From positions 17,988 to 81,987 of IMG/VR virus record IMGVR_UViG_3300033068_001745: DNA of 64,000 bases. One strand, 5' to 3'. Position numbers and translations under genes: made by a program. Under the pieces are notes generated by a model. That model was not told where the DNA came from. It ran no database searches and was given only the letters and a program-made list of their open reading frames with translations. How positions within the stretch are numbered: the stretch's first letter is position 1; each line of letters begins with the position of its first letter. Shown piece by piece: positions 2,825-46,320 of this stretch. Source of the stretch: a virus. Its lineage: Duplodnaviria; Caudoviricetes.

Positions 2825-5800
2825 AGAAATATATGAAAATTTACGATTTATAGAAGACATACCCTTATTACAAATAACAGATAGAAGTGCCTTTTTAGTA
2901 AAACACCCTCATTATCACCCTTCTACCAAGCAATATAAACAATTTAAAATAAAGGAATATGAACATTGCATTTATGGAAAGTGGGGGAAACAAAAGGATA
3001 AGTGGAGATGGATTCCTCCTATGACATATCTCTATTGCAATTATATAAAAATTGAAATGGAGAATGATAAAAAGGAAACTGTAATAAGATTAGCCTCCTT
3101 AGATGATGTAGAATGGATTATAGGATATGCTTTTGCAGCTTGCTATGGTTTTTCAGGTTTTGAAAAAGAAGAAGAATTTTCTTGTGATAAAGCTCTCATA
3201 GACCAATATGAAATGATTTTAGCTAAAAGACATAAAGAAAGATATGATAGTTTACTAAAACCAAATGGAGAGTTCAAAACATATATTACTGTTGAAGATT
3301 ATTTATATAAAGAGCATGACCAAGATAAAGGTAAACCTCTTTGGTATAATGAAGCAGAGGACTTAATGATTTTTGGTTCAAGAAGCTCAGGTAAAATGCT
3401 ACAACTTGATGAAATAGTCCGTACATATAAAGGATGGACAGCTATGAAAGACTTAAAGATTGGTGATTTAGTATATGGTTCTGATGGCAAATTATCACCT
3501 ATAACATTTGTATCAGAAGAGCAAACTGGAGAATATTATGAATTAACTTTAAGAGATGGTAGAAAAATAGAGGCTTGTGCTGACCATTTATGGAAAGTTT
3601 GGGATAAGAATAAGAATAAAGACCCTAAAAAAGAAAACTATTCTGTTATTTCTACGAAAAACTTATTTAAAGATTATTGTTGGGACAGGAAGGACTCACG
3701 TAAAAAAGGTGAAATGACTAAGGAATACAGATATGCTTTACCTACAAATGAAGCTATTAGTGAAGAATCAGAGTTACCGCTTGACCCATACTTATTAGGA
3801 TTATTATTAGGAGATGGTTGTATAACAGGAGGTACTGCTCCAAGTATTGTTTCTGATGACAATGAAATTATTGAATATTGCATAAAGCAATGCGAATTAA
3901 ATAATTGGAGTTATAGAATAAATAATGATAAGAACCCTACTATATTCTTTACGAATAAAAACAAAGAGGTTTCCTTATCTCATATACTTGAAGAACTGAA
4001 TTTATTAGGTACTAAATCCAATAGTAAATTTATTCCAGAGCAATATTTGTATTCTTCTGAAAAGAATAAAATGCAATTACTTAGAGGTTTAATGGACACA
4101 GATGGTACAGTTGATAAAAGTCATATAGAATACTACACCGTATCTAAACAATTATGCGAAGATATTATGAATTTATGTAGAAGTTTGGGTATAAACTGTA
4201 ATTCAAGGATTAAAAAAACTCATTATAAAAAAAATGGAGTTAAAATAGAATGTCAAGATTGTTATAGAATTTCTATTTTTACAGACAAACACATCTTTAA
4301 CTTGAAAAGAAAACAGGATAAAATAATTAAGGGTAGTAACAGGAGTTATTCAAGAATAAATAAAACTTTTATAATAGATATAAAACCTGTTGGTAAAAGA
4401 GTAGGGAAGTGTATATCAGTGGATAATTATGATAATACATACATCACCAGAGACTATATAGTTACGCATAATACATTTAGTATTATTGGTTTATGTTGCT
4501 ACTTGCTTCTTATGGATGGTACAAAATCTATAAGCAAAGATTGGATAAATTTAGATATATCAGCTAATATAATTGCAGGAGCAGCAGGAGATTTACCTTT
4601 ACAAGAAATTAACAGACGTATAGAAGTTGCATTAAACTGCCTTCTTACAGATGAAGATTTAGGTGTATATAAAGCTCCTGGTATAGAACCAATTCCTCTT
4701 ATAGGAAGACACTTCTTAGGTCAGACAAATAATTATCTTAGATATAGATATATAGTTGGAGGGAGGGAATCAGGTGGTACAGGAAGTTCATATAGACCAG
4801 TTTCTTATGCAGCAAATAAAAAAGGGGCTACAACAAGTGCTGCTTCAACAAGGGTAGCTTTAAGTGTGGTAGATGAATGTGGTAGAATGCCAGTATCTAT
4901 TAAGTCAATACACGGTTCAAACTCAGCTCTTTGTAGAAGAAATACAAAATTTGGTGTACAACTCATGGCTGGTACAAGCTCAAGTGATTTAGATTTAGTT
5001 CAAGAGGCAAAAGAAATGTTTACAAACCCCAAAAGTTTTAACATGCACTCTTTTAGAAACCCTTACACTAAAGAAGCTGTTTCTGAAACAGGTCTTTATT
5101 TACCTGCCATATTAGTACAAAGGGCTTTCAAAGATGAAAATGGAAATACTCTAGTTAGGGATGTATTAAAATATTTTGCAAACAGAAGAGCTAAATGTGA
5201 GACTCCTGATGCTTTAAGAGAAGAACAACTTAACTATCCTATTCTTGTAGAAGAAATGTGGTATTCAAGAAAAGGTTCTATCTTTAATAAAGAGCAAGCT
5301 AAAAAAAGATACCAACAACTGTTACTTCTAAAGAATCAAGGTAAAGAAGAAACCTTTAGAAGATTTGCTAACTTGTTGTGGAATAATGGAAAAGTGGAAG
5401 TGCAGTTTATAAATCCTAAAGAGGCTATTAAAATGGATAATTTCCATGAGTCTCAAGGTAGTAATGCTGCTAAAAATAAAAAGGGTGACACTGACACTGA
5501 TATTATTATTTATGAAGAACCTGAATATGGTAAAGATGATATGTATTGGTTTTCTTGTGATACTTATGTAGCAGAAGAAAAAACAGAAGGAGAATCATTA
5601 GGGAGTATATTTGTTTTTAAAAACCCTAAGTATATTATTGAAGGGAAAACAGGAAATATAGTAGTGGCAGAATATACAGGAAAACCTGACAATAGAGATA
5701 GGTTTTATGAAAAGTTAGAGTTATTGATGGCTTATTATGGAAACCCTAAGAGGTCATTAATGTTTGAAGCAAACAGGGGTTATGATAAGTTAGTAGAGTT

Positions 5801-17609: not shown

Positions 17610-18020
17610 ATGAAAGAACTTTTGTTGAATGAACAATTTCTAACAGCAGTTATAGGAGTAATCATAGCATTTTTCTTTGGGCAAACAGGCATATTAAAAA
17701 CATGGTTTGATAAAATATTTATATCTAAAGAAAAGCGAGAGCTTGCTATATTAGAAGAAAAGAAAAGAGCTCAAGATTTGGCAATTCAAGCTGAAGAAAA
17801 GGAAGCTGCTAGATTTACTGCTTTAGAAAAGGAAAAGGAAGACCTTAGAGCACAAATAAAGACTCTTCAAGAGTCAATTGCTAAACTTGATAAAGATTTA
17901 GTAAAAACAACAATATATGTTAATACACTATTAGCTTTTCTTGAAAATGCCATACCTGAAGGAAATAATGCCTTCATTGTACAAATGGCTTCTGAAATAA
18001 GAAAGGAGAATAATAAATGA
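17610..18020 (+). CDS. Single-TM, coiled-coil membrane protein (holin-like)
   Basis: N-terminal TM FLTAVIGVIIAFFFGQTGIL followed by a long K/E/A/L heptad coil. Confidence 0.5.
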   Translation: MKELLLNEQFLTAVIGVIIAFFFGQTGILKTWFDKIFISKEKRELAILEEKKRAQDLAIQAEEKEAARFTALEKEKEDLRAQIKTLQESIAKLDKDLVKTTIYVNTLLAFLENAIPEGNNAFIVQMASEIRKENNK

Positions 18021-30354: not shown

Positions 30355-33300
30355 ATGCCTGATATAAACGAATTACTAAAATATGTTAAGGATAAAAATA
30401 TTACTCCTTTACCTGTTGATAATAATATACATAGTAGATTTTCTGACATTCCTTTAGATATAAACGATGTTCATATAGCTCAAGATAGAAATGTAGATTT
30501 ATCTCAAATACAAGCTCCTTATGAAGTAGGAGAGGCTATAGCCAATTCCCAATCTACTTCTGAAAAATGGTTAAATGACTTAGGTAGATTAGGTACAGGT
30601 GCTGTTTCTGCAACAGTTGGTGGATTTGCTATGATTCCTGCTTTCTTTGATGCAGCAAGTTCAATGGAATTATCCGCCATGTATGAAAATGGTGCTGTAA
30701 AATGGGCTGAAGGACTTGATGAATGGGGACAAGAAAAATTTAAAAATTATTATACTCAAAGACAAGAAGAGGCTTATAAAGAAGCAAGTATTTTTAAAAA
30801 AATGACTTATGGTGAGAAGTTTTGGGGAAACAGTTTACTTGCCAATGCAGGATTTATGATAGGTGCAGCAGTTGATGAAGCTATATTTTCAGCACTTACT
30901 GCTGTTACAAGTGGTGGAGCAGCCCCCTTACAAGCGGTAGAGACAGGTTGGTTAGCTGCAAGGTTAGCAAGAAGGCTTGCTGAAGCTGGTACAGAAGTAA
31001 TGGGTAGTGGGACAAACCTCATTAAAAATGTTTATAGAGGATTTACAGCAGAAGGTGAAATAGCTAAACAAGCTATGATGTCTGGATTAAAAAATAGCAG
31101 ACAACTTCTCACTTCAGCAGGATATGAAAGTTCTGTTGAGGCTTTACAGTTTCAAAAAGAAGCTTATAATCAAGTGCTTGAAAAGAAAGCAAATGAACTT
31201 GGTATTTCAAAAGAAGAACTTGAAAACAACCCTTTGCATGAAGAAACATTGGGAAGATTAAAAAGTGGAGTAAATTCTGTAGCAAATGGACTTTGGTTAA
31301 TGAATTTAGCTACAGTTGGGTTAAGTAATGCTATTGGGGCAACTGCTTTATTTCAACTTGAGAAACCTATTCTCAACATGTTGGAAAGAGTTAACCCTTT
31401 GAGAGCATTTATGTCAGCAGGAGTTGAAGATTTAGCTAAAACAGCAGGAAAAGAAATTGGTAAAGATGGAGTTCAATTTGCTGCAAAAAATCTAAGTATG
31501 GCTCAAAAAGCTTTCAATATTGTTAAATCTCCATTATCAGAAGGTACTGAAGAATTTTCACAAGGTTTATATCAGGATGTAGGGAAGAGATATTTAGAAG
31601 ATAAATACAACCCAAATGCAATAGATATGATTTTGAATGGAATACCTCTTATGGCTGATGAAATAGGTAAAAGACTTGGTGATAGTTCTCACTCAGGGTG
31701 GGAAGAGTTTGCAAGTGGTTTTATGAGTAGTTTATTAGGACTTCCTAATGTTGGTAGATTTGTTGGGAAAAAAGAAAATGGGAATTATGGTTTTAAAAAC
31801 GATAAAGAACAACCTGCTTGGGTAGGTGGTATATTCCAGGGTATTGCTGAAAATAGACAAATTCAAAATGAAAGAAATGAAAATGCAGCTCTTAATAATT
31901 TTCTTAGCGATAAAAACTTAGCTGAAATGTTAGATGGTAAATTATCAACAGATAATATTACAACAGCTTCTGTTAAAGCATTTCCTATGATAATGGCTGC
32001 ACAAAAAAGACTTGCTGATGGAATAAAAAGTGGAGATAAATTTGAACAAAATCAAGCTAAACATGATTTACTTGCTTATGCTGCTATTGCAAGAGATAAA
32101 ATTGGTCAAGTAGAAAACTTTAAGAAAGATGTTCTTGCTCAATATGACCAACATACAGCAATATTACAAAAAGGAGTTACGGCTGAAAGTACTCAAGAAG
32201 AAATACAATCTGTTGCAAATCTTGAAAGTATATATCAAGGAAATACAACTCAAGAGAAAATTGCAGAAGTAAACAGAAAAAAGAAAAATACAGAAATCAA
32301 ACTTAAAGATATTGAAGCAGGAATATCTCGTGCTAAATCTTTTAATTTAAGTCCTGACTTACAAGATAGAATGGCTGTTGCTTTGAGCAATGGTAATAAC
32401 AGAGTGTCAGAAGCTAATAGTCTTTTAAAGGCATTACAAACCTCTCTAAAGCTTCCAAATATTCAGGTAAGCAATCTATCATCTAATGAGCTTTATGAGC
32501 TTCTGGATAAGCATAAAGTGGCTACAAGCAAGCATAAGAAAATATCTGATTCTTTACAAAAAGATAAAGCTGAATTTGACTCATTACCAGATGAAATTGT
32601 TGCTTTTGAAGGAGAATCTCCAAGAGCTAATGAAAAAAAGAAAGCTGTAAAAGAAAGAGTTGATAATTGGACAAAAGAATTGGATGCTGAAACAGCAAGA
32701 CTTGAAAAAGAGCTTAATAAAAAAGTTTCTGAAGTTGATTTTACTGTTGAATCTCCTCTTACTCAATATAGAGAAGCTATTGATAAACTTCAAGGAGATG
32801 AGAAAGTACAAGCTGAAAGTTTATTTAATGATGTTCAAAGAGCTATAAATCAACATAAAGAAGCTGTAAAGGAATATAATTTAATTATGAATAATCCTGA
32901 AAAAGCTCAAAAACAAGAAGATGAAGCTAAAGAAAAAATACAGAGACAAATTGACAATAAACCAGAACTTCCTGAAAACATTGAAGAAACAGAGGAAGAA
33001 AAATCGGCAAAAGAGAAACAATTAGCTGAACAAGAATCTATTAAACAAAAAGAACAAGAAGAGATTGCTAAATTAGAAGGTGAGAAAAGAGCTAAAAAAG
33101 AAAAAGAAATTGCTGATAGACTTGAATCCGAAAAGAAAGCTCAAGAAGAAAGTGATAAAAAAGCAGAAGAATTAAAAAAACAAAACAGAGCTGAATATCA
33201 AAAAAACATTGATATTCTTGATGAAATTATTAATAAAGGAAAATATTATGATATTGAAGTAGTTGAAAATATGAATACTGATAAGTTTAAGAATTGGGGA

Positions 33301-36300
33301 AAATGGTTTGACCAAATTGAAAAACTTAAATTCATGGCACTTGCTAAACTTTCTAACCAAAGAAATAGTCCTTATTATTCAGTTCAAAGTATTACTACAA
33401 TTGATAGAGCTGATAATAATAATTTAAGATTGAATAATATTAACAATAGTAATAAAACTCAATATGAACTTGATTTAGATACTCCTGTTAATGAAGATGA
33501 ATTTGAAATTGTAACTGCTCCATTTAATACAGGAGAAAATACTAAAAAAGTAGATAAAAATGGAGACCCTGTTGTAGGTAAAAATCCAAGACTTGAAAAT
33601 ATTCCTAATCAAAAAGGAACTACAATTGCTGTTGTAAGAAAAGGTACAAATAAGATTATTGGTTTTATTAATGATAGAATTTTTCAATACAAAGATAAAA
33701 ATGGTAAAATGATTCCGTTTTTAAAACCAAACACAAGAGAATTAAATCCAGAATTTAATCTTGCTTGGATTGGCATGGAAGGAAAACAAGCTGAAATTCA
33801 AGACCAATTAAATCTCTTATCAACTTTAACAAGCGGAAGTTTAGTTAAAACAATAGAAGGAAGACTTAGATTCCCAAAAGAAAATGCTGCAATAAACCTT
33901 ACAGAAATTGAACAATTATTTTCAAATCCTCAAGTTGCTTCTGTTTCAGTGTTTCAAAGAATTTATCAAAATGAGAATATTCTATATCAAGAATGGAAAT
34001 ATAATAGAGAAAGAAAAATATGGGAAGCAGGTGAAATATCTGACCAAGATAGAGTAGATGCCAACACTTTAGCTATTACCTACAATGATGGGCACATCTC
34101 AAACATATCTGTAAATGTTTCAAAAGAGAATGAGTTAAAATGGTTTAAATCAGCTTTAAATAATTTAGCAAATAAAGGTACAACTTCTACTTCAAAAGTT
34201 GGAGGTTCTGTATTTTTCACAATTAATTCTGATGAAATTAGTCAAACTGTTGTAATTGAGGAGAATAAAGATGGTACAAGAGTAGCAATTAAAGTGTTAA
34301 AAGGAGTTAAAGGAGAAAAAGAAACTCAAGTGTTTGAATGGACAAATATCCAAGAATACTTAGATTTAATAAAGACTTTTCAAGGTATGAAACCTGAAGA
34401 ATCTCTTGAAGCATTTAAACAGTTTTTCAATGAAAAGTTAAAAATTGCTTCTGATAAAGGTAAACTCCCACTTGTTTACAAACTTTATACAGTTTCTTTT
34501 AATGATGAAAGTTTTGATAAAGAAATTGCAGAAGGTAAATATATCATTCCTAAAATGGAAGGTAAATTAAGTGTTGTAAATGTAGAAAAAGCTGATATTG
34601 CTGCTAATGAAGGACAAGTTTCTTTAATTGGAGAAGTTAAAGAACTAATTGGAAAACAAGTTGGTACATCTAATTATAGTGTTGAAAATGGTCTTATATT
34701 CTATAATAACTTAGATGGCACAGTAAGACCTGTTCTAAATCCTAACAGAAAATCTATAATTGAAGCTGTTGAAGATGATATAAAAAGAAGAAGAAAAGAA
34801 AACCCAAGTGTTGAAAGAGGTGTGTTAATTAATTATGAAAGCGGAAAAACAAAAGAGCAATTAATTGACATTGTAAGCAAATTAAAAGAAGGTAAAATAA
34901 CTTTTGATGAAATATATGAAGAGTTTTCCAACTTACCAACAAGCACGCTTTTAGAAGTAAAAAAAGCGTTTAATGAAGGCACTCTTGCAGATAAAATACA
35001 ATTTGGATTAGACATAAATGAGCTTTCAGAAGTGCAGTCTAAAACAAGAAGTAAAGAAGAAGTAATAAAATCAAGACAAGAAGCATTATTTGAAAAACAA
35101 AAGGCTGAAACAGCGTTAAAAGATTCAGAATATAAAATAGTTAAGAAAAAAGAGCTAATTACTGGTAAAGTTACAGAAACAAAAGTTAAAAGAACGGTAG
35201 AAGAAAAAGCCAAATACGAAGATTTTTATAGAAAAACAATAGAGGACATAAATAAACAAATTGAAGAATACGATGCTGAATTACAATCAACAGAAACCAA
35301 TTTACAACCCGAACAAACAACAGTTGAAGGAGAACAAAATATTCCTACTGACGTAGGAACGAATAATGTTTCACCAAGTAATATAGAACAACAAAAAGCT
35401 GATATTGAAAGAAGAAGACCAGAAATTGTAACTAGATATACAGACTCTGATGTAAAAGCCAATCCTGATAAAATATTTGTATTTGGAGATAATACACAAA
35501 GAACGGGTACTGGTGGTCAAGCTCAAATAAGAAATAATCCAAATGCTTTTGGAATAGCAACCAAGTTAAAACCTACCAATAATGCTGATGCTTTTATGTC
35601 TGATAATAATTTAGAAGCTAATAAAAACATTATTGATTCTGATATACAAAAAATACTATCTCAAAATAAACCTTTAGTATTCCCTAAAGATGGTTTTGGA
35701 ACAGGTTTAGCAAAACTCAAAGAAAAAGCTCCTAAAACTTATGAATATTTAAAGCAAAGATTAGCTGATGAATTTTACTTCGATAATGATAAAGGAGAAA
35801 TCAATGCTAAATATGATAAGGAATTAAAAGCATTAGAAGAAAACACTCCTCTCGCACCAAAAATGCCTATAAATAAAAGAACTTTTGAAACAGGACAATA
35901 TGTAAAATACAATGACGAAGTTTATATTATTACAAAGCAAAATAGTAATGGAACTTGGCAAATATATAATCCAAATTTAGAAGGAGTAAATGCTAAAAAA
36001 TCTGTATCAGAAGATAAACTTGAATTAGTTAATGGTAAAGCTAAGATAATAACTTATAGAGATGCTGATTATATTGTAACTCCTAAAAATACTATTATTT
36101 CACTTACTTCAAATAAAAAAGTATTTGAAGATGAAAAGAATGGTAACAGAATTAATATTCTAAATTTGGCTCATAACGATTCTTTATTTACTGATGATTT
36201 TCAAGATAGATTTGATATTAAAGATGAAGAAAAAACTTATACTCAACAAGAGATAAAAGATTATGTAAAAGCTAATAAAGAAAATAAAACAGATGAAGTA

Positions 36301-39300
36301 AGAACTGAGCTTGAAAAAATGAAAAATTGGGCTGAAAAGAATGATGGTAAATTATTTACAGCTTTAAATAATTTATTAAATACTTTTCCTAAAACTCAAC
36401 TTTCTAATAAACCAAGTGAAATTACTCATCAAAAAGCTGTTGAAATATTTAAAGAATACTTTCCAAATTCTGCTTTATCATTAGAAGATGTAAGTCAAGT
36501 TCTTGGTAAATTATCCTTCCTTCCTAGCTCTGTTGTATATGGTGTTTATAATGGCTTGGTTAGACTTAGACAAGGTGGAACACTTAAAGATACACCGTTT
36601 TTTGAAGGCTTTAGATTGGTATTTAATGCTCTTATAACAGATAAGGAAAAATCTCAAATATTAGAAGAAGCAAGATTAAAATATTTTTTAGGTTTATCTA
36701 AAGATAAAAAAGAAACTATTTTAAAAGAGTTTCAAAAGACTTATTCTCCAAAACTTAATGGTGAGTATGTTTGGCAAGGAAAAGAACTTGAAAATTATTA
36801 TTTAGAGACAATGCTTGCAAGAGAATTTGCAAATAAGGCTACTACAAATAAACCAAAATCTTTTATTCAGAGATTATTTGATAAAATAAGAAGTTGGTTA
36901 GGGATAAACAAAATTGATAGTTTGTTCAATAGAATACTTGCTAAAGAATTTAGAGATTTTCCTTACAGCCCAAAAGATAATCAAGGTACAATTAAAACAA
37001 TGCTTGATGTTTATTCATCTGAAAGTGAGTCAGGTAAGGACTTAATGACAAGTGAAAATGCTTATAGAATTGCTAATAGAATATTTTCTAAAATGGCAAG
37101 AGATAAAATGTCTTTTGAAACTGCTTTAGCTGCAACAAGAAAATATTATGATGATTTAGCTGCAATTCCAGGAATATTAAATGAAACAAAAACTTCTTTA
37201 GAAATATTATCAAGCTCTATAAATGAAATTGATGAGTTTGATGAACGTAATGAAATTGGACTTCAAAATATTGAAAATCTTAGAAAAGAAGTAGAAGATA
37301 GAAAAGCAATACTTTCATTTGACCCTGATACTGTTAGTGAAGAAGGCAATGAAAATGAGGATATTGCAATTAGAGATGGAGAAAACTTTTCACAATCTTT
37401 GCGTGAATTAGGTGGAGAAATGTCAGCTTCTAAAAAGTTTAAAGAATACTTATCAACAATAATGTATGTTGATGATGAATTTGATTTATTTGGAAATGCT
37501 TTTTCAGAAGAATTTAAAAATATGTCTGAAACAGAGCAAAAGAAATTTTATATTCCTGTAGATTTCATTTTAGTTTACAACACAATGCTTAAACTTACAG
37601 CAGGTAAACCCAAATCTGAAATACTTGGATTAAATGGAACAGGTCTTTTGAATCTTATGAAAGACACTGATAAACAATTACTTGCAGTAGTTAATCAAAT
37701 GAATGTTGATATTGCTAACCCACAAGAATTTGATACAACTTTAGATATGATTCTTTCTAATCTTGAAAAACAAAAAGTTCAAGGGAAAATAATCTTACAT
37801 GATAATGAAACAGGTAAATTTGATATGAGTGATGAAAATGCTCAAGGTATTGAAAATAGTCAAATCAATAAATGGGCAAGTGAATATGAAATGAGACATG
37901 TTGGGAATATTGCAGAAACAGAAGAGTTATTAAAGGAGTTGAAATTTCCAACAAGTGCTACAGCTTTATATAAGGCTCTTAACAAGTATGGTTTTAAAGT
38001 TTCAAGACTTTATTGCCAATGGTGTTATGGTTTGAAAACTGGGAAGTATGAAAATGATATAATCCCTAAAATTGCTACAGAATATGGATTAACCACAAAC
38101 AATAGTATTTTAGATAAAACGAACATTGAATATATTTTTGATAAGATTATTAATAGAGAGAATGAAAATGCTAAACTTATTGCTAAAGGTTTACCTGGAG
38201 TTGAAACCATATTTCCAAACGGAGATATTTATTTTGGTGAAAAGAAGAATGAAGGTAGTAGAAATAAATTAAAAGCAGTGGCTTTTGGTAATAGTATTTT
38301 TGATTCATCTGTTAAGAATTTAAGTTATAAAAATTCTGAAAATAAAACAGTTTATGAAATTATTGCACGTATGCAAGTTGGAGATTTTGTCAATATTATA
38401 AATAAGATTACAAAAGCTAATAAACAAGGTGAACCTACTTATGATGCTATAAGAAAAAAAATACTTGATTTGAAAAATGATAATGAAGAAATTGAAAAAC
38501 TTCTCAAAACAGAAGTTGGTGGAAAGTACCCTTATTTAAGCTTTATTAACAGTATTTACAATCTTGTACAAGAAGGTAAAGATATGGAAAATGGTGAAGA
38601 TATGGCTTTAAAAGATGTTCAAGATATTCTTATAGATTTAGGAAAATTCATTTTTCATAATAACCTGGAGAATTTTGTAGAAAAAGATGATAAAGGTAAT
38701 TATAGACAAATGGAAATCGGATTTTTAGGTGGCTATAGGGAAACTTCTGGTGAAATAATTGAAGACACTTATATTGAAGATGAAAAAAGTAAAAGTAAAG
38801 CAGGGACAACTTTTAGTTCTGCAAATGAGCAGGAAAAAACATTAGCTTTACTTGGTGTTTGGATGAAAGGGTGGTACAATCCTATTGTAGCAGCAGGTAA
38901 ATCTATGCAGTTTATTTTCAAAGGAAATAAAGTTAAAAGAATTACACCTCAAAAAATAGAAGATACAAAAAACATTTTGATGAATTGGTTTGACCAAGAA
39001 ATTCATAGAATTGACAGAGGAATAAAAGGACAAGTTAGTAAAGATATTGATAAATATGAACAAAAATCTCAAAAGTTTTTTGAAAATAAAGCATTTGTTG
39101 ATAGTCTTGCTAATACAGATTTGAAAGAAATTTATTCAGCTTTTATTGAAGTAGATTCAAAAGATGCCAATCTTGTTGCTGCAAAGTTACAAGAGAAAAA
39201 AGATTTTATTGAAAAGTATAAAACAGATAAACAATTTAGAGACAATATAAAAGAAGCATTATTTGATTTTCATAATAATTTATCTCTTAACTTTGCAAAC

Positions 39301-42300
39301 AAAACAATTGGAACAATAGGGATTAATTTACCTCAAGTTCTTATTGATAAGAAAGAAAAACTTGTGGAAAATGATTTAAATGAAGGTACTGAAAATCATA
39401 GACTTATGGTTAATGTTTTGCAAGAATTTTACTTTGATGATTTAATAAATAGTACAGCTTTCTACAATACTTTTATTGGAGATAAAGCTATGAGTTTAAA
39501 GGGTTATATTGATGTAAATAAAAGGGCAGGTAAACATATTGCAGGTGGAGTGAGTTCTGAAACAGCCAATAGAAATATTAGAGCTATTGGTGTGAAATCT
39601 ATTAAGCAAATGTTGGGAATTGATGAAGATTTTCAAATAGATAAAGATTGGTACTCTGAAAGAGAAAATTACCCTTTAAAAAACAAAGATAAATTTGAAC
39701 CTACTGACACTACAGATGCAGAAAGTTATCAAACTGTAAGGGCTAATATTGACTTCTACTTGAAAAGTAATGCTAAATATACAAAAGAGGTACATGAAAT
39801 TTATGAAATGATAAATTATGGTATTGAGCCTTCATTTGATTGGTGGGAAAAACTTGATAAAAATAATGCAGCTTTACAGAAAAGAAAAATGGTTTATGCT
39901 GATTTTCTTCAATATATTAAAACTTCTGTAAATACTTTAACTTGGCAAGAATGTTCATTTTGGAACAGTGAAGCATTGAAAGCTTTTGCAAATGAAGCTA
40001 TTAGATTAAATGTAGAAAAATTAACTCCTTTACAAGAATTGGCTGTAATTAAAACTCTTACTGAAAATAATTCTGCTAATGTTGCTAAATTTAGAACAGT
40101 TTTACCAAGTAGAAAGAAAATGTTTGGTTTATTGTCTTTTATGTTAAATAACAAGATTGATTATGTTTATCATGATTCAGCAAGTAAATCGTTGCAAAGA
40201 AGGATTAGAGCTAAAGATTTTGATAAATTAGAAGCTAAAAATGCTCACTACTTAAATCCTACTTATTGGAAAGAACAAGTAGCAACTGATGGTGTTAAAA
40301 TGGAAGTAGTTGATGGTACACAAAAAATACAACTTATCTTTTCAGAACAAAATGGCGAAATAAAAGTTGATATTGGTCAAAATACTTTTGATTTAGAAAA
40401 AGTTTCTGATACTTATAAACAATATTTGGCTAATAGGATAAGTATGATGTATGAAAAAGTTCTTGCTGAATTACAAAATGAAGATGGAACAATTAACATA
40501 GATGAATTAAAAGCAGGTTTTGTCAAGACTCTTGAAAAGAGTGGTTCAACACAACAAACAATTAAATTCTTCAAAGAGAGTAATATTAACTTACCGCACA
40601 TTGTTGAAAAAGCTGAAAGTATGTTTATGAGTAGAGTGAGCAAAGTTCTTTCCCACAAAAAACCAGGAAGTGCTTTGGCTCTTGCTTCCCCCAAATTATA
40701 TCCAATAATGAGAGCTACTACTAAAATTGAATTATCTAATGGTAGGACTATTTCAGAAAATGAAGTAATTTCAACAGAAACTTATAAAAAGTTTAGTAGT
40801 GAATTTACAGAAGGTAAAAACTTTGCAATAAGCAGATTAAGGCATGGAGTTAAAGAAGGTAAACATTATTATGCTGAAATTATACTTCCTGCAAATCATC
40901 CTGCATTAGCTTATATGAAAGATGGATTTATTCCTGCTGAATTTGCTGAAATGGTTGGTATTAGGATTCCTACACAAGATAAACATTCAATGTTGTCTAT
41001 GAAAGTTGTAGATGTCATTCCTGCTTACAAAGGTTCTACAGTTATAGTTCCTTTAGAAAGCATCTTGTTGTCAGGAGAAGACTTTGACATTGATAAAAAG
41101 TATATTTATTGGTATGCAGGTTATCAAACAGTAAATGGTTGGAAGAAATACGGAGATTATAAAACTTTTAAAGAACTTGATGAAGAAGTTAAACAGCTTG
41201 CTTCAGAAGAAAATATGTCAGCTAATGATTGGAAAACTCAAAATATTGAGCAATATGATAATATGGTTAAGAGAATGAATGAATCAGGTAAATTAGAAAA
41301 AACTCAAACAAATAAATATGAGCTTGATAATGATTTACTTGATTTAGAGAAAGTTATGGTTCATAATAACGGAAATAATGATATTGCTTATACACCTTCA
41401 AGTATGGACATTGTAAATCAGGCAGTTCAATCTCATATTCTATTAGTTGATAAAGAAAGATTAAGATGTGCTGAATTTTATGGAATGGAATTAGCAGCTT
41501 TTGATACTTTACCAAGTTCAGAAAAAGTAGAAAAAATACAGAAATTTGTAAAGGAAAAAGGTTATATTAATGTTTATGGAAATCATAGTCCATTAGATAA
41601 ACTTACAGCTTATTATAATAATGATGTTGGTAGTGAAAACATTGGAGTTTGGGCTTTATCAAATGTGGTAATGCAAACTTTAATAAAAGAATCTAAATAT
41701 ATTAAAGTTGAAAATGGAGCTTACATGCTACATGGAATAAGAATCAATGATATAATTTCATCTTTCTTATCAAGTGCTACTGACAATGATAAAGAACAAC
41801 ATGCTGCTATTTTACAACTTGACCAAGAAAAATGTGGTATAATGTTTGATTTAATGTGGAGACAAGGTTTACATCCGACAGTTGCTTTGGGAATTATTTA
41901 TGATGGAAATGGTGGAAATAATATGGATTTAGGAGCTTTAATGCAGTTAAATCCTAATTTATCAGAAACAGATGCAAAGTTTTTAAATGATTTAATGCAA
42001 GGTGATGAGCAAGCGATGGAAAAACAGAAGTATTTATTAAAATCTTCTACAAACGCTGCAAAATACACAATGGCTTTAACAACACTTATGAGTTTAAATA
42101 AAGGTTTTAAATCAACAATATCTGATAATCAAACAATCGTAGAAGCAATAAAAACATTGAAAAAAGGAGTTGTAGATAAAGAAACTGGATTAACTTTACC
42201 AAAACCTTATGATGGTTGGAACATTGTTCAATCTGATATTCATTTAAAAGAAGAAGTTGATAAATTTGAAAAAGTTTATGATGAGCTTACTCCAAAAGTT

Positions 42301-45300
42301 TTCTTGATAAGAAATGAAAAATTGAGAAATGCTTTGGAAAAAATGACAGCTTCATTAAAAGGAATGAATTATCCTACAAACAGAACAAAAGTTTATAGAG
42401 ATTTGATTTCCTATGTCATAGTAAATATTATTAAAAACAATGATAGTTTGGTTCAGAATTATGCAAAAATTGGCGGAGAAGAAATATTTACAACAGGTTT
42501 GATAAGTAAAGTTAAAACTATTTTGACACCAAAGGTTGATAATTCGTTAATGAAAGGATTAACTGCTGTAAAAAAAGTAATGAAGCAGGGAGAATTTACA
42601 GGAAAAACAATTGATTCAGTGGCAATGAATACTTGGTTAAAAGCTGTAAGATTTGTAGATGAAAAAATGCAAAATGATTATGAGAGATTTAACAGAAGAC
42701 CACATGCTTTGGAAGAAATAAAAATTGCAATGGAAAATGGCAAAACTGTTGATGAAGCTCTTGTAGAGATTGATACTAATAAACTTATGGGAACATTAGC
42801 AAAACTCATGTACATTCAATCAGTAGTTAAAGAAGGACTTCAATTCAAATCAGGAAGTGTTAATTCATTGATTTCTACACCTTTATTTGCACAAACAAAT
42901 GGGCTTATTGACAGATTAATGGATGAAAAGAACTTTGAAGAAATTACAGGAAAATCTGCCGACCAATTAATGATTGATTTTATTAGAAATTTTGTTGCAG
43001 ATGAATCAAATAAATCTTTCTTACCAAGTTTATACAAACAAGAATATTTCATGGAAGCTAATGAACAAGGAGATACTTTGGGAAATGCAAGAATTGAGCT
43101 TAAAAATGCAGGTTTCAATTTTGATGAAAAGAAAAAAGTAATTCCTGCTTTTGGAATAAATTATGGTAAAGTTAAACTTGTACTTAATGAAAATTCTATT
43201 AAATCAATGTTAAATGATGAAGAATTTACTCCAATTTATGAAAGTATAGTTACAAAAGGTGGAAAAGATGTTGTTGGTTATAGAAATGATGATATTAAAT
43301 CTGGAGAAAAGATTGGTAATAATATGTATTATACTGGTAAAAAAGATGCAGAATTTGAAGCTGATTTAATAAAACAATCTTTGAACGAAATTAAAAATCA
43401 AACATTAGCTGAAAAGATATATGCGAGTTTACCAAAGAAAACGGAAAGTGGAAATGTATTAATAAAATCAGTTTATCAACAAGCAGGAATTGATTATGCA
43501 AAGTCTGTTGGAGGTATTTTCAGTTTAAGAGTTAATAATTCTGACAAACATTTCGGAAATCCTTTTAGTTCTGTGCAATCAGAAATAGATAAAGGATTAA
43601 TTGCTACAAAAGATACAAAAGAAGGTGTTGAAAAATATATTGATTGGGTAATTAATTCACAAGATGAAAGAGCTAAATGGATTAGAGAACAACTTGATAA
43701 AGGAATATTGAAAGGTAAACCTATTATTTATTACACAGATAAACCTGCTAAAAATTCCATAAGTCCAAGTAATGAAACACAGCCTTCTCATGCGAATGCT
43801 TTGGATTATTTAATTAATAATTGGGAAAGTGTTATAAACCAATCTGTTGAAGCTAACAAAATGGTACAACCAACTTCCATGAGTGAAATAACAAATCATT
43901 CAGGTGGAGCTTTAGGTGCAGATAGCATGTGGGATAAGATTGGAAGATTATTTGGCGTAGTAAATCATAAACATTATTGGGCTAACCAAAAAACTCCAAT
44001 GGGAAATGTAGAACTCACAAAGCAACAATTAGAAGAAGGAATTGAACATGCAAAGTTAGCAGCCAGAGAACTCGGAAGACCTTTTGTAGATAAATATGCT
44101 AATTTATTAGGCAGAAATTGGTTTCAGATTAAAAATAGTACACAAGTAATTGCTATTGCTCCAATAGTTTATCCAAATGAAAAAAATTCACAAGGATATG
44201 TTGTAAAAGCAACAAGAGCTACTGTTGATGGTGGTACAGGATATGCTGTTGAAATGGCAATAGCTAATGGAAAAGAAGTTAATGTTTTTGATACTAAAAC
44301 AAATCAATGGTACAAATGGAATGGTTCAATTTTTGTAAAATCAGAAGTTCCAATATTACATAAAGACTTTGCAGGAATTGGCAGCAGACAAGATAATGGG
44401 AAAATGACTGATGAATCAATACAAGCTATTAGAGATGTTTATGAAAAGACAAGAAATTCTTTACAAGAACAAAATGATGTAAAAGTTTCAGCTATTAATT
44501 TCAATGATGAACAAAAATCAGCTATAAATCAAGCTATTGAGTTTATTAAAAATGGAAATCCTAAAGAATGGTTTGTAATTGAAGGTAAAGCAGGTGTCGG
44601 AAAGACAACTATTGCAGAACAAATTGTAAGAAACTTTCCGAATAAAAATACAAGTGTTGCTGCTTTATCTTACAAAGCTAAAAGTGTAATCAGAGATGAA
44701 TTTAGAGAAAATGGCATAAAAGCTAATTTTTATAGTTTAGCAGGTTTGTTAGGTCAAAAACTTAATATGGAAACTGGAGAATTTGAAAGAGATGAATTTT
44801 CAATGACAACTCCTCCAATTGAAATGTCTGATTTGATTCTTATAGATGAAGCTTCAATGATTAATGAGCAAGCTTTGGAATTAATAATGCAAACAAAGCC
44901 TACTAATGCAAAAGTAATATTTTTAGGAGATATAGGTCAATTACCACCTATAAGAACTGAAAAGAATAAGTATTACAAGGATAAAAAAGCATTATTTGGG
45001 AAGAAATCTCCTGTATTTGAAGGAAATAATAAAGCTAAACTTCTCACAAGAATTAGACAAGGAGAAGAAAGTCCAATCCTACCTTATGCTGATTTTTATT
45101 GGGAAAATTCACAAGTATCAAATCCTGTTGAATATCCTGCTACAAATAAAAAAAATGTAATTTCAAGTAAAGGTACTTTAAGATTTGTTGATAAATTTGC
45201 TGATATTAAAGATGAAGTTGTTAATGAATTTAAACAATCTGTTGAAACAAACAATCCTAATCATATTAAAGTAGTAACTTACAGAAATGCTACAAGAGAA

Positions 45301-46320
45301 AGTATTAATGAATATGTTCATAATTCTTTATTTGGAAACCAAAACGAGTTCAATAAAGGAGAACTTATAATATTTAATGATAGCTATGATAATATTGAAA
45401 ATTCAACAGAATCACAAATTTCAGATATTACAGAAGTTAAAACAGATGAAAATGGTTTGAAATATGTAGATTTAACAATAATCTATGAAGGTAAAATTAA
45501 ATCTTTTCCTGTTGTTTTAAAAGAAAGTAAAGAAGATTATAAAAAACTTATTTCTGCCAAATTTGCAAACGCAAAAGCTAAAACAGGTTTAGATAGAAAA
45601 TTAGCAATGAAAGAAGCTTGGGCTTTTAAAGGAAAGTATGCTAATATTGATTATGGATATGCAATTACAAGTCATAAATCTCAAGGTTCAACTTATGATA
45701 TTGTTGTAGTAGATGAAAAAGATATTATGTCTGTAAGTCCTATTTCAGCAAAAGAAAAATCAGAAAGTATTTATACAGCACTTACAAGAGCAAGAAATAA
45801 AGTAATCTCTATATCTGAAAAACAAAAATCACCAACAGAAATTGCTAATGAAATAAAAGTTAATCAAAAATCTGTTGCTCAAGTATTTGAAAATATGGAT
45901 AATATGAAAGAAGAGGAAATTGAAGAATTGTTAAATAAAATTAATGAAGATAGATTTATTAGAAGTTTACCTAACGAAATAGAAGGTTTTAATACTGATA
46001 AGTTAATTGAAATTAAGAAAGTATTTAGTAATCCTGAAGCTGATTATTCTGAAATAGAAGATTGGGAAGGTGTAACAATGGAAAAATTAGAAATAGAATA
46101 TTCAAATAAAAATAGTAGAATAATGTCTGATTTAATTCAAGTAATGCCTGAAGGACAAACTGTTAATGAATTTGTAGATAATTTATTAAAACAAAATATA
46201 ATTTTAAAAGACAAAAAACAGTTATCTATATTTGACCAAGAACAAACAGGTTTAACAGAAAAAGATTGGAATAGTCTTAGTGAAAAAGAAAAAGATAAAA
46301 TAAAAGAGTGTTACTTGTAA
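30355..46320 (+). CDS. Giant virion RNA polymerase polyprotein, 5321 aa (TM-like N-terminus, degenerate zincin, RNAP core, macro-like, DUF4326-like, SLOG and SF1 helicase domains)
   Basis: RNAP motifs YAEIILP, GIRIPTQDKHSM (~40960) and catalytic SGEDFDIDK (DFDID 41080-41094) as in crAss-like vRNAPs; helicase motifs GKAGVGKT, DEASM, GDIGQLPP, HKSQG, YTALTRA. Confidence 0.88.
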   Translation: MPDINELLKYVKDKNITPLPVDNNIHSRFSDIPLDINDVHIAQDRNVDLSQIQAPYEVGEAIANSQSTSEKWLNDLGRLGTGAVSATVGGFAMIPAFFDAASSMELSAMYENGAVKWAEGLDEWGQEKFKNYYTQRQEEAYKEASIFKKMTYGEKFWGNSLLANAGFMIGAAVDEAIFSALTAVTSGGAAPLQAVETGWLAARLARRLAEAGTEVMGSGTNLIKNVYRGFTAEGEIAKQAMMSGLKNSRQLLTSAGYESSVEALQFQKEAYNQVLEKKANELGISKEELENNPLHEETLGRLKSGVNSVANGLWLMNLATVGLSNAIGATALFQLEKPILNMLERVNPLRAFMSAGVEDLAKTAGKEIGKDGVQFAAKNLSMAQKAFNIVKSPLSEGTEEFSQGLYQDVGKRYLEDKYNPNAIDMILNGIPLMADEIGKRLGDSSHSGWEEFASGFMSSLLGLPNVGRFVGKKENGNYGFKNDKEQPAWVGGIFQGIAENRQIQNERNENAALNNFLSDKNLAEMLDGKLSTDNITTASVKAFPMIMAAQKRLADGIKSGDKFEQNQAKHDLLAYAAIARDKIGQVENFKKDVLAQYDQHTAILQKGVTAESTQEEIQSVANLESIYQGNTTQEKIAEVNRKKKNTEIKLKDIEAGISRAKSFNLSPDLQDRMAVALSNGNNRVSEANSLLKALQTSLKLPNIQVSNLSSNELYELLDKHKVATSKHKKISDSLQKDKAEFDSLPDEIVAFEGESPRANEKKKAVKERVDNWTKELDAETARLEKELNKKVSEVDFTVESPLTQYREAIDKLQGDEKVQAESLFNDVQRAINQHKEAVKEYNLIMNNPEKAQKQEDEAKEKIQRQIDNKPELPENIEETEEEKSAKEKQLAEQESIKQKEQEEIAKLEGEKRAKKEKEIADRLESEKKAQEESDKKAEELKKQNRAEYQKNIDILDEIINKGKYYDIEVVENMNTDKFKNWGKWFDQIEKLKFMALAKLSNQRNSPYYSVQSITTIDRADNNNLRLNNINNSNKTQYELDLDTPVNEDEFEIVTAPFNTGENTKKVDKNGDPVVGKNPRLENIPNQKGTTIAVVRKGTNKIIGFINDRIFQYKDKNGKMIPFLKPNTRELNPEFNLAWIGMEGKQAEIQDQLNLLSTLTSGSLVKTIEGRLRFPKENAAINLTEIEQLFSNPQVASVSVFQRIYQNENILYQEWKYNRERKIWEAGEISDQDRVDANTLAITYNDGHISNISVNVSKENELKWFKSALNNLANKGTTSTSKVGGSVFFTINSDEISQTVVIEENKDGTRVAIKVLKGVKGEKETQVFEWTNIQEYLDLIKTFQGMKPEESLEAFKQFFNEKLKIASDKGKLPLVYKLYTVSFNDESFDKEIAEGKYIIPKMEGKLSVVNVEKADIAANEGQVSLIGEVKELIGKQVGTSNYSVENGLIFYNNLDGTVRPVLNPNRKSIIEAVEDDIKRRRKENPSVERGVLINYESGKTKEQLIDIVSKLKEGKITFDEIYEEFSNLPTSTLLEVKKAFNEGTLADKIQFGLDINELSEVQSKTRSKEEVIKSRQEALFEKQKAETALKDSEYKIVKKKELITGKVTETKVKRTVEEKAKYEDFYRKTIEDINKQIEEYDAELQSTETNLQPEQTTVEGEQNIPTDVGTNNVSPSNIEQQKADIERRRPEIVTRYTDSDVKANPDKIFVFGDNTQRTGTGGQAQIRNNPNAFGIATKLKPTNNADAFMSDNNLEANKNIIDSDIQKILSQNKPLVFPKDGFGTGLAKLKEKAPKTYEYLKQRLADEFYFDNDKGEINAKYDKELKALEENTPLAPKMPINKRTFETGQYVKYNDEVYIITKQNSNGTWQIYNPNLEGVNAKKSVSEDKLELVNGKAKIITYRDADYIVTPKNTIISLTSNKKVFEDEKNGNRINILNLAHNDSLFTDDFQDRFDIKDEEKTYTQQEIKDYVKANKENKTDEVRTELEKMKNWAEKNDGKLFTALNNLLNTFPKTQLSNKPSEITHQKAVEIFKEYFPNSALSLEDVSQVLGKLSFLPSSVVYGVYNGLVRLRQGGTLKDTPFFEGFRLVFNALITDKEKSQILEEARLKYFLGLSKDKKETILKEFQKTYSPKLNGEYVWQGKELENYYLETMLAREFANKATTNKPKSFIQRLFDKIRSWLGINKIDSLFNRILAKEFRDFPYSPKDNQGTIKTMLDVYSSESESGKDLMTSENAYRIANRIFSKMARDKMSFETALAATRKYYDDLAAIPGILNETKTSLEILSSSINEIDEFDERNEIGLQNIENLRKEVEDRKAILSFDPDTVSEEGNENEDIAIRDGENFSQSLRELGGEMSASKKFKEYLSTIMYVDDEFDLFGNAFSEEFKNMSETEQKKFYIPVDFILVYNTMLKLTAGKPKSEILGLNGTGLLNLMKDTDKQLLAVVNQMNVDIANPQEFDTTLDMILSNLEKQKVQGKIILHDNETGKFDMSDENAQGIENSQINKWASEYEMRHVGNIAETEELLKELKFPTSATALYKALNKYGFKVSRLYCQWCYGLKTGKYENDIIPKIATEYGLTTNNSILDKTNIEYIFDKIINRENENAKLIAKGLPGVETIFPNGDIYFGEKKNEGSRNKLKAVAFGNSIFDSSVKNLSYKNSENKTVYEIIARMQVGDFVNIINKITKANKQGEPTYDAIRKKILDLKNDNEEIEKLLKTEVGGKYPYLSFINSIYNLVQEGKDMENGEDMALKDVQDILIDLGKFIFHNNLENFVEKDDKGNYRQMEIGFLGGYRETSGEIIEDTYIEDEKSKSKAGTTFSSANEQEKTLALLGVWMKGWYNPIVAAGKSMQFIFKGNKVKRITPQKIEDTKNILMNWFDQEIHRIDRGIKGQVSKDIDKYEQKSQKFFENKAFVDSLANTDLKEIYSAFIEVDSKDANLVAAKLQEKKDFIEKYKTDKQFRDNIKEALFDFHNNLSLNFANKTIGTIGINLPQVLIDKKEKLVENDLNEGTENHRLMVNVLQEFYFDDLINSTAFYNTFIGDKAMSLKGYIDVNKRAGKHIAGGVSSETANRNIRAIGVKSIKQMLGIDEDFQIDKDWYSERENYPLKNKDKFEPTDTTDAESYQTVRANIDFYLKSNAKYTKEVHEIYEMINYGIEPSFDWWEKLDKNNAALQKRKMVYADFLQYIKTSVNTLTWQECSFWNSEALKAFANEAIRLNVEKLTPLQELAVIKTLTENNSANVAKFRTVLPSRKKMFGLLSFMLNNKIDYVYHDSASKSLQRRIRAKDFDKLEAKNAHYLNPTYWKEQVATDGVKMEVVDGTQKIQLIFSEQNGEIKVDIGQNTFDLEKVSDTYKQYLANRISMMYEKVLAELQNEDGTINIDELKAGFVKTLEKSGSTQQTIKFFKESNINLPHIVEKAESMFMSRVSKVLSHKKPGSALALASPKLYPIMRATTKIELSNGRTISENEVISTETYKKFSSEFTEGKNFAISRLRHGVKEGKHYYAEIILPANHPALAYMKDGFIPAEFAEMVGIRIPTQDKHSMLSMKVVDVIPAYKGSTVIVPLESILLSGEDFDIDKKYIYWYAGYQTVNGWKKYGDYKTFKELDEEVKQLASEENMSANDWKTQNIEQYDNMVKRMNESGKLEKTQTNKYELDNDLLDLEKVMVHNNGNNDIAYTPSSMDIVNQAVQSHILLVDKERLRCAEFYGMELAAFDTLPSSEKVEKIQKFVKEKGYINVYGNHSPLDKLTAYYNNDVGSENIGVWALSNVVMQTLIKESKYIKVENGAYMLHGIRINDIISSFLSSATDNDKEQHAAILQLDQEKCGIMFDLMWRQGLHPTVALGIIYDGNGGNNMDLGALMQLNPNLSETDAKFLNDLMQGDEQAMEKQKYLLKSSTNAAKYTMALTTLMSLNKGFKSTISDNQTIVEAIKTLKKGVVDKETGLTLPKPYDGWNIVQSDIHLKEEVDKFEKVYDELTPKVFLIRNEKLRNALEKMTASLKGMNYPTNRTKVYRDLISYVIVNIIKNNDSLVQNYAKIGGEEIFTTGLISKVKTILTPKVDNSLMKGLTAVKKVMKQGEFTGKTIDSVAMNTWLKAVRFVDEKMQNDYERFNRRPHALEEIKIAMENGKTVDEALVEIDTNKLMGTLAKLMYIQSVVKEGLQFKSGSVNSLISTPLFAQTNGLIDRLMDEKNFEEITGKSADQLMIDFIRNFVADESNKSFLPSLYKQEYFMEANEQGDTLGNARIELKNAGFNFDEKKKVIPAFGINYGKVKLVLNENSIKSMLNDEEFTPIYESIVTKGGKDVVGYRNDDIKSGEKIGNNMYYTGKKDAEFEADLIKQSLNEIKNQTLAEKIYASLPKKTESGNVLIKSVYQQAGIDYAKSVGGIFSLRVNNSDKHFGNPFSSVQSEIDKGLIATKDTKEGVEKYIDWVINSQDERAKWIREQLDKGILKGKPIIYYTDKPAKNSISPSNETQPSHANALDYLINNWESVINQSVEANKMVQPTSMSEITNHSGGALGADSMWDKIGRLFGVVNHKHYWANQKTPMGNVELTKQQLEEGIEHAKLAARELGRPFVDKYANLLGRNWFQIKNSTQVIAIAPIVYPNEKNSQGYVVKATRATVDGGTGYAVEMAIANGKEVNVFDTKTNQWYKWNGSIFVKSEVPILHKDFAGIGSRQDNGKMTDESIQAIRDVYEKTRNSLQEQNDVKVSAINFNDEQKSAINQAIEFIKNGNPKEWFVIEGKAGVGKTTIAEQIVRNFPNKNTSVAALSYKAKSVIRDEFRENGIKANFYSLAGLLGQKLNMETGEFERDEFSMTTPPIEMSDLILIDEASMINEQALELIMQTKPTNAKVIFLGDIGQLPPIRTEKNKYYKDKKALFGKKSPVFEGNNKAKLLTRIRQGEESPILPYADFYWENSQVSNPVEYPATNKKNVISSKGTLRFVDKFADIKDEVVNEFKQSVETNNPNHIKVVTYRNATRESINEYVHNSLFGNQNEFNKGELIIFNDSYDNIENSTESQISDITEVKTDENGLKYVDLTIIYEGKIKSFPVVLKESKEDYKKLISAKFANAKAKTGLDRKLAMKEAWAFKGKYANIDYGYAITSHKSQGSTYDIVVVDEKDIMSVSPISAKEKSESIYTALTRARNKVISISEKQKSPTEIANEIKVNQKSVAQVFENMDNMKEEEIEELLNKINEDRFIRSLPNEIEGFNTDKLIEIKKVFSNPEADYSEIEDWEGVTMEKLEIEYSNKNSRIMSDLIQVMPEGQTVNEFVDNLLKQNIILKDKKQLSIFDQEQTGLTEKDWNSLSEKEKDKIKECYL

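Follow-up and report, generated by a model that had tools for sequence, protein, structure and literature searches.

A DUF4326-related and SLOG domain pair within a crAss-type RNA polymerase protein as a candidate injected nucleotide-processing cassette

INTRODUCTION

Domains of the DUF4326 family have been described computationally beside SLOG, Macro or NADAR domains in DNA viruses, as have fusions of SLOG domains to superfamily I (SF1) helicases (PMC7824862, PMC9503650), and the viral DUF4326-SLOG fusions have been predicted to process derivatives of ADP-ribose (PMC9503650, PMC7824862). A survey of injected polyvalent proteins further recorded N4-type polymerases that carry MPTase, ART, lysozyme and PBECR domains (PMC5512222). 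The fusions, their predicted ADP-ribose processing and the presence of polyvalent injected proteins on N4-type polymerases are thus already published. Here we describe a related arrangement in 64,000 nucleotides of a virus of the Caudoviricetes (Duplodnaviria; positions 17,988 to 81,987 of IMG/VR record IMGVR_UViG_3300033068_001745; this whole stretch is hereafter called the window), in which a divergent relative of DUF4326, termed d1, and a SLOG-superfamily domain, termed d2, stand in tandem within a giant crAss-type RNA polymerase protein. Searches of the literature did not find the clade of DUF4326 relatives to which d1 belongs, distinguished by YY…SH in place of cysteines, nor the d2 family as a distinct cpYpsA-like group, nor the nested and permuted arrangements of the two domains, nor their joint residence in crAss-type polymerases.

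No viruses of the human gut are more abundant than the crAss-like phages, yet to our knowledge the means by which they escape host immunity are almost wholly uncharted. Their two-barrel RNA polymerases are defined by a DFDxD motif, and the virion RNA polymerase (vRNAP) is borne in the virion and injected, as in phage phi14:2, whose gp66 is packaged and ejected (10.1101/2020.03.07.982082). Enzymatic domains joined to such a protein might therefore be delivered with it, and we consider it about an even bet that d1 and d2 together form a nucleotide-processing cassette of this kind.

RESULTS

Two adjacent domains in one reading frame

An earlier note, made from the nucleotide sequence without database searches, had proposed tandem DUF4326-like and SLOG domains at 43470-44460. 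The tandem order stands, and the limits proved to be slightly wider: on the basis of a family profile, hhalign and alignment, d1 extends over amino acids (aa) 4355-4500 (window 43417..43854, plus strand) of a 5,321-aa open reading frame (ORF), whereas PHROG matches, a structural scan and alignment place d2 at aa 4508-4703 (43876..44463, plus strand). The short linker between them (43855..43875, plus strand) consists of unaligned, non-conserved alignment columns. All the motifs on which the proposal had been based do lie in this one frame, within aa 4398-4678; those of d1 start at aa 4398 (KHFGNPFS), 4426 (EKYIDW), 4453 (KGKPIIYY) and 4478 (SHANALDY), and those of d2 at aa 4514 (NHSGGALGAD), 4586 (GRN), 4626 (GGTGYAV) and 4673 (AGIGSR). 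At this site the antisense strand has no ORF longer than 44 aa, and neither tandem repeats nor Rfam matches were found.

As a single sequence, d1 falls below the threshold of the Pfam DUF4326 model (PF14216; E = 0.077, 14.1 bits against a cut-off of 25 bits). An exhaustive search of 1.84 billion representatives, along with two word-indexed searches, yielded well over 100 relatives, and a profile built from 16 of these, with no canonical DUF4326 member among them, recovered Pfam-labelled DUF4326 proteins from a database of 5.8 billion sequences at E values of 6.2e-6, 1.3e-4 and 7.1e-4. When the d1 profile was aligned by hhalign with three of these Pfam-labelled proteins, 89 columns, almost the entire domain, were matched with a probability of 98.6 % (E = 7.5e-16). 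The two groups have in common an R…HFGNPFS motif, a W-containing helix, an R-x-W-I motif and the terminal His. In d1 the HFGNPFS motif occupies aa 4399-4405, with H20, G22, N23, P24 and S26 nearly invariant, and the domain is further distinguished by an N-terminal extra conserved segment of ~25 residues. The canonical CxC…CH pattern is replaced by YY…SH, so that the three cysteines are gone and the His alone is retained. Since this cluster is missing, we file d1 as a divergent sister clade rather than as a canonical member; on these sequence comparisons it represents a branch of the DUF4326 family that has diverged and lost its cysteines, and the assignment proposed at the outset is borne out at the level of the family.

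The loss of cysteine had also been remarked upon earlier, and it is real, yet it need not mean that the domain is dead, because a Ser-His pair takes the place of Cys-His with few exceptions: of 121 d1 copies, 116 have S-H and 96 have YY. R13, H20, N23, S26, R60, S99 and H100 are nearly invariant across more than 100 copies, which argues that d1 is functional; the conserved polar residues of the window copy are R4392, H4399, N4402, R4439, S4478 and H4479. The structure model of d1 has a mean predicted local distance difference test score (pLDDT) of 87, dropping below 50 in a loop at model residues 83-94, and loop expansions at the corresponding point, before S-H, recur in a few relatives. Its top matches in BFVD are mostly DUF4326 proteins (TM 0.4-0.55, probability at most 0.99), but every E value is at least 0.1. 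The ESM Atlas returned only unnamed viral clusters (0.81-0.83), and in the PDB the three best matches, all of weak resemblance, were to the NADAR proteins 2b3w, 8bat and 8bau, of which 8bau is a complex with ADP-ribose. DUF4326 itself has been proposed to belong to the rhodanese-phosphatase superfamily (PMC9503650).

The second domain matches PHROG 768, annotated as "DprA-like," at E = 1.1e-7. No Pfam model matches the window copy at an E value of 1 or less, and only 1 of 24 members of the d2 family reaches Pfam cpYpsA (PF12694; E = 0.0036). The model of d2 is of high confidence (pLDDT 95.4, predicted template modelling score 0.92). The earlier note had looked to fold searches for a decision, and their outcome was divided: Foldseek against the PDB gave nothing significant for either domain (best E = 0.26 for d2 and 5 for d1), and neither single-sequence nor profile searches of PDB sequences matched d1 or d2, whereas a full structural scan of d2 recovered members of the SLOG superfamily, a result that was subsequently confirmed. 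The top match, with a score of 12.1 (141/158 residues), was 3imk, a "putative molybdenum carrier protein" of the Pfam cpYpsA family; it was followed by 1rcu, three DprA structures, YpsA, MCP, 1weh and ShosA at 5.4-6.2, the LOG enzymes at 4.5-4.8 and ThsA bound to glycocyclic ADP-ribose (gcADPR) at 3.9, all of the SLOG superfamily.

Sequence conservation points the same way. The motifs SGGAxGxD, EG, RN..Q.K, GGTG and FAGIG(T/S)R are conserved across 24 diverse relatives of d2, and of these SGGAxGxD, RN…Q.K and GGTG are invariant or nearly so. On the strand assignment of the model, a Gly-rich loop follows strand 1 and conserved polar residues follow strand 3, as is typical of SLOG domains. The corresponding residues of the window copy are G4521-x-D4523, E4561, R4587-N4588, Q4591, K4593 and G4626-G4627-T4628. 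The GxD signature is G4521-A-D4523, with G22 and D24 of the family conserved in at least 90 % of members, and GxD/E marks the substrate site in the YpsA clade (PMC6459960). The prediction of a SLOG domain of the YpsA kind is thus upheld by both the structural scan and the conserved GxD, RN and GGT motifs. Because the cpYpsA model of Pfam misses the window copy, we assign d2 to a SLOG family that has no Pfam model and is closest to cpYpsA.

The two domains are mobile and repeatedly kept together

The arrangements of d1 and d2 vary among relatives: besides the d1-d2 order of the window copy, we observed d2-d1, which is the commonest, and d2 nested within d1. In the nested cases (P0009, P0010, P0042, P0091 and P0215) d2 is inserted at residue 57/58 of d1, between the KYIDW and RAxWIRE helices, and this loop is an insertion hot spot that also takes DUF7831 and other inserts. 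In P0186 there are three nesting levels, with DUF7831 inside d1 and a Pfam cpYpsA domain inside DUF7831. The latter, a second SLOG family, is fused to d1 in both P0185 and P0186, and in P0151 a canonical DUF4326 domain (Pfam E = 1.2e-15) takes the place of d1 ahead of a d2-type SLOG domain. Such nested and permuted arrangements are strong comparative evidence of d1 and d2 working together, and on the strength of these comparisons d1 and d2 are best described as independently folding, mobile domains that evolution has repeatedly kept together. Other fusion partners of the d1 family are NADAR, ART-PolyVal, AAA_33/Zeta-type P-loop kinase, ParB-like and AlkB-like domains. DUF7831, for which there was no lead to a known fold, cooccurs with d1 or d2 in P0012, P0069, P0133, P0186, P0261 and P0264, following d2 in P0012 and P0133 and d1 in P0261 and P0264.

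The DFDxD motif is present in 48 of 72 giant proteins (those of more than 2,500 aa carrying d1 or d2), against a chance expectation of ~0.03 per protein. Between giant proteins the cassette is 55-66 % identical, while the polymerase cores are ~25-50 % identical, aligned over 60-370 residues only. The cassette lies upstream of DFDxD in P0002 and downstream in others. Viral d2 is encoded on 375 IMG/VR contigs; among the best 80 of these d2 loci, 44 belong to ORFs that are giant or open-ended, and in 29 of the 44 the retrieved portion contains DFDxD; a further 35 encode stand-alone d2 proteins of ~205 aa, mostly on contigs of 100-480 kb. Many phages have stand-alone d1 and d2 genes, and one locus (L082) has the architecture d2-d1-helicase.

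Beyond the crAss-type proteins, d2 occurs without d1 in the vRNAP of Klebsiella phage Pylas (L001, NC_049444), where it is inserted in the N-terminal part (aa 982-1161) and flanked by low-complexity linkers. An Alteromonas N4-like phage has d2 as well. The Pylas enzyme is an N4-type, single-subunit polymerase unrelated to the crAss type, and judging from these sequences d2 is an independent recruit there. As a side observation, the entire 4,328-aa giant protein of crAssphage cr113_1 (L002, NC_055896) bears the annotation "DprA-like DNA recombination-mediator protein." We regard the label as an annotation artefact, since it derives from a single d2 domain near the C-terminal end and masks a DFDxD polymerase protein. 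Translation of its fetched part with table 11 gives 43 stops, perhaps because the frame is incorrect or because stop codons are recoded.

The giant polymerase protein and its other domains

The host protein of d1 and d2 is encoded by one uninterrupted frame of 5,321 codons (30355..46320, plus strand) and combines a crAss-type virion RNA polymerase protein with accessory domains, with at least five domain types in the single ORF. The catalytic metal-binding motif of the crAss-type two-barrel RNA polymerases was found by motif search as DFDID at aa 3576-3580 (41080..41094, plus strand), and a tblastn search with residues 3255-3800 (~550 residues) retrieved "putative RNA polymerase" genes of the crAss001 type from 78 crAss-like phage records (~22 % identity, E = 5e-8). 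No PDB sequence match was found for the polymerase region, aa 2701-4379. On the basis of the DFDID motif and the tblastn matches the product is a crAss-type RNA polymerase protein, in agreement with the vRNAP named in the earlier note. The term polyprotein, also used there, is not supported, as neither cleavage sites nor an HExxH peptidase motif was present in the giant ORF. Homology and a late-gene position suggest that the protein is packaged, and it is probably injected into the host.

All four of d1, d2, the helicase and DUF7831 lie outside the polymerase-homologous stretch. Directly after d2, from aa ~4714, there follows a Dda/RecD-like SF1 helicase (44494..45951, plus strand), which matches AAA_30 (E = 1.6e-16) and UvrD_C_2 (E = 2.1e-10) of Pfam and phrog_325, "Dda-like helicase" (E = 6.8e-74); past it, the C-terminal tail of the ORF runs to 46317. 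The DUF7831 domain (aa ~1693-1801, 35431..35757, plus strand; Pfam PF25176, E = 2.2e-37; phrog_2072, E = 2.3e-14) is the sole Pfam or PHROGs match in the remaining 4,300 residues. Just after it, at aa ~1834-1953 (window ~35854-36213), is a module of ~110 residues that is ~50 % identical to stretches of P0008 and P0012, its counterpart in P0008 lying at aa 4251-4361, between d1 and d2. By these matches, the module is apparently another mobile piece that travels with the d1-d2 cassette. A search of IMG/VR with the region just upstream of d1 gave no close relatives. The source record is a contig of 81,987 bases with an estimated CheckV completeness of 40 %, so that the phage may be ~200 kb long, which is large for a crAss-like phage.

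DISCUSSION

A predicted function for the cassette

We propose, with a probability of roughly 0.5, that d1-d2 acts as a single nucleotide-processing cassette, brought in along with the ejected polymerase, and that its target is of the nicotinamide adenine dinucleotide (NAD)/ADP-ribose type. The ligand of d2 would be an adenine-ribose nucleotide, most probably one derived from NAD+ or ADP-ribose, which d2 might cleave as well as bind. The ribose-phosphate moiety would be the object of a second step by d1, in which Ser4478-His4479 would take over from the canonical Cys-His. In this way the phage would probably disarm a host immune signal, a toxic metabolite or an adduct of ADP-ribose before expressing any gene of its own. 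The choice of NAD+/ADP-ribose follows from the fusion partners of d1 and from the published predictions for viral DUF4326-SLOG fusions (PMC7824862, PMC9503650). A role in counter-defence, as suggested in the earlier note, is plausible and consistent with the context. It is also compatible with observations on phage DruSM1, in which deletion of the SLOG-type ORF83 lowered plating on AVAST type III (10.1101/2024.04.14.589459; 10.1101/2025.06.06.658234). The more specific proposal that the YY…SH DUF4326 clade and the d2 SLOG domain are an uncharacterised two-step enzyme on the virion RNA polymerase, which would need only seconds after injection to destroy a nucleotide-based immune signal of the host or an adduct of ADP-ribose, is offered tentatively, as rather unlikely.

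Several observations weigh against the proposed cassette function. Position 134 of d2 is Glu in the window copy and varies across the family (E/Q/A/G/S/H/T), so that no catalytic Glu of the LOG type can be recognised and the role of d2 may be confined to binding. The window copy of d1 has an extra, low-confidence loop of 11 residues directly before S-H. Neither PADLOC nor NCBIfam matched d1 or d2, and the 82-kb record, ~40 % complete, has no ART-PolyVal, NADAR or Macro gene, nor was there a Pfam match to a Macro domain in it. The adjoining helicase and the recurrent d2-helicase fusions suit a DNA-centred role equally well. Finally, although many phages and giant viruses carry DUF4326 and cpYpsA-like SLOG domains, we know of no experimentally established function for either.

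The intact SF1 helicase immediately after d2 is the natural starting point for a reading in which the pair is a DNA-handling accessory: d2 would be a DprA-like binder of single-stranded DNA or a nucleotide-sensing switch that, with d1, loads or regulates the Dda-like helicase and polymerase on the incoming genome. In that event d1-d2 would belong to the ejection or early-transcription machinery and have no part in counter-defence. A helicase again adjoins d2 in P0007, P0051, P0059, P0073, P0097, P0116, P0139 and L082, the SLOG-SF1 helicase fusions have been interpreted as sensor-regulated DNA enzymes (PMC9503650), and d2 is found in two unrelated kinds of virion polymerase. However, most d2 copies have no adjoining helicase, with ~35 of the 80 best viral loci encoding the stand-alone form of ~205 aa, and the NADAR, ART and kinase partners of d1 indicate small-molecule chemistry; we judge both the DNA-handling role and the exclusion of counter-defence that it entails to be unlikely. 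The tethering of the cassette to a polymerase and a helicase that move along incoming DNA might alternatively mean that it repairs macromolecules, clearing the DNA or RNA of the phage itself of ADP-ribose, similar adducts or terminal phosphates during entry and transcription, for instance in reversing DNA ADP-ribosylation of the DarT type. This would accord with the weak resemblance of the d1 model to the NADAR proteins 2b3w, 8bat and 8bau, with the fusions of d1 to NADAR, ParB-like and AlkB-like domains and with the link of DUF4326 to DNA-modification contexts (PMC7824862), but no nucleic-acid-binding feature was identified in d1 or d2 and stand-alone copies are common, making repair quite improbable in our estimate.

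Were d1 instead a dead scaffold after the loss of its cysteines, and the pair a structural spacer in the giant protein, one could account for the absence of all three canonical Cys residues, for the large insertions tolerated at residue 57/58 and for the extra disordered loop of the window copy. This is very improbable given that seven residues of d1 (R13 to H100, as listed above) are nearly invariant in more than 100 copies, that the conservation of the cassette exceeds that of the polymerase core and that many phages maintain d1 and d2 as genes in their own right.

If the nucleotide-processing cassette does ride on the injected polymerase, it would afford a counter-defence that is independent of gene expression. 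No enzymatic anti-signalling module delivered in the virion would have preceded it; crAss-type and N4-type polymerases would each have acquired it independently, and it would provide the first biochemical function for DUF4326 and cpYpsA-like SLOG domains. As a compact construct of ~350 residues with clear mutational targets, the cassette makes two orphan families testable.

Comparison with known systems

The giant protein shares with phi14:2 gp66 and the virion RNA polymerase of crAss001 the DFDxD motif and weak homology around it. At ~2,180 residues, gp66 is reportedly far shorter than the 5,321-aa protein. Like the polyvalent virion proteins surveyed earlier, the late-gene product described here unites a virion polymerase with several unrelated enzymatic domains that are expected to act right after injection. 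Processing by a peptidase is a further mark of polyvalent proteins; the giant ORF has no internal peptidase motif. The survey makes no mention of SLOG, DUF4326, DUF7831 or crAss-type two-barrel polymerases (PMC5512222).

Among phage proteins, ORF83 of DruSM1, a Smf/DprA-like protein active against AVAST type III, resembles d2 in being of the SLOG fold, the two being likened by description only. In ORF83 an R-N pair and a T residue have been proposed to form a site for adenosine monophosphate (AMP), and its amoeba-virus homologues have a C-terminal DUF4326 domain (10.1101/2025.06.06.658234, 10.1101/2024.04.14.589459); the d2 counterparts of the proposed site, R4587-N4588 and T4628, are conserved. 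No E. coli phage was among the tblastn matches to d2. The closest solved structure to d2 is that of the cpYpsA protein 3imk (PF12694), and members of the d1 family also occur in fusion with true PF12694 domains or with such a domain nested inside them. With a sequence identity of 16 % to 3imk, d2 differs from it in an extra β-hairpin (model residues ~105-125) and a long C-terminal helix. The canonical DUF4326 family (PF14216), for its part, is homologous to d1 over nearly the whole domain and shows the same tendency to adjoin SLOG domains, as exemplified by P0151; d1 is set apart from this family by its Y-Y…S-H residues, its N-terminal extra segment, the insertions at residue 57/58 and its embedding in crAss-type polymerases.

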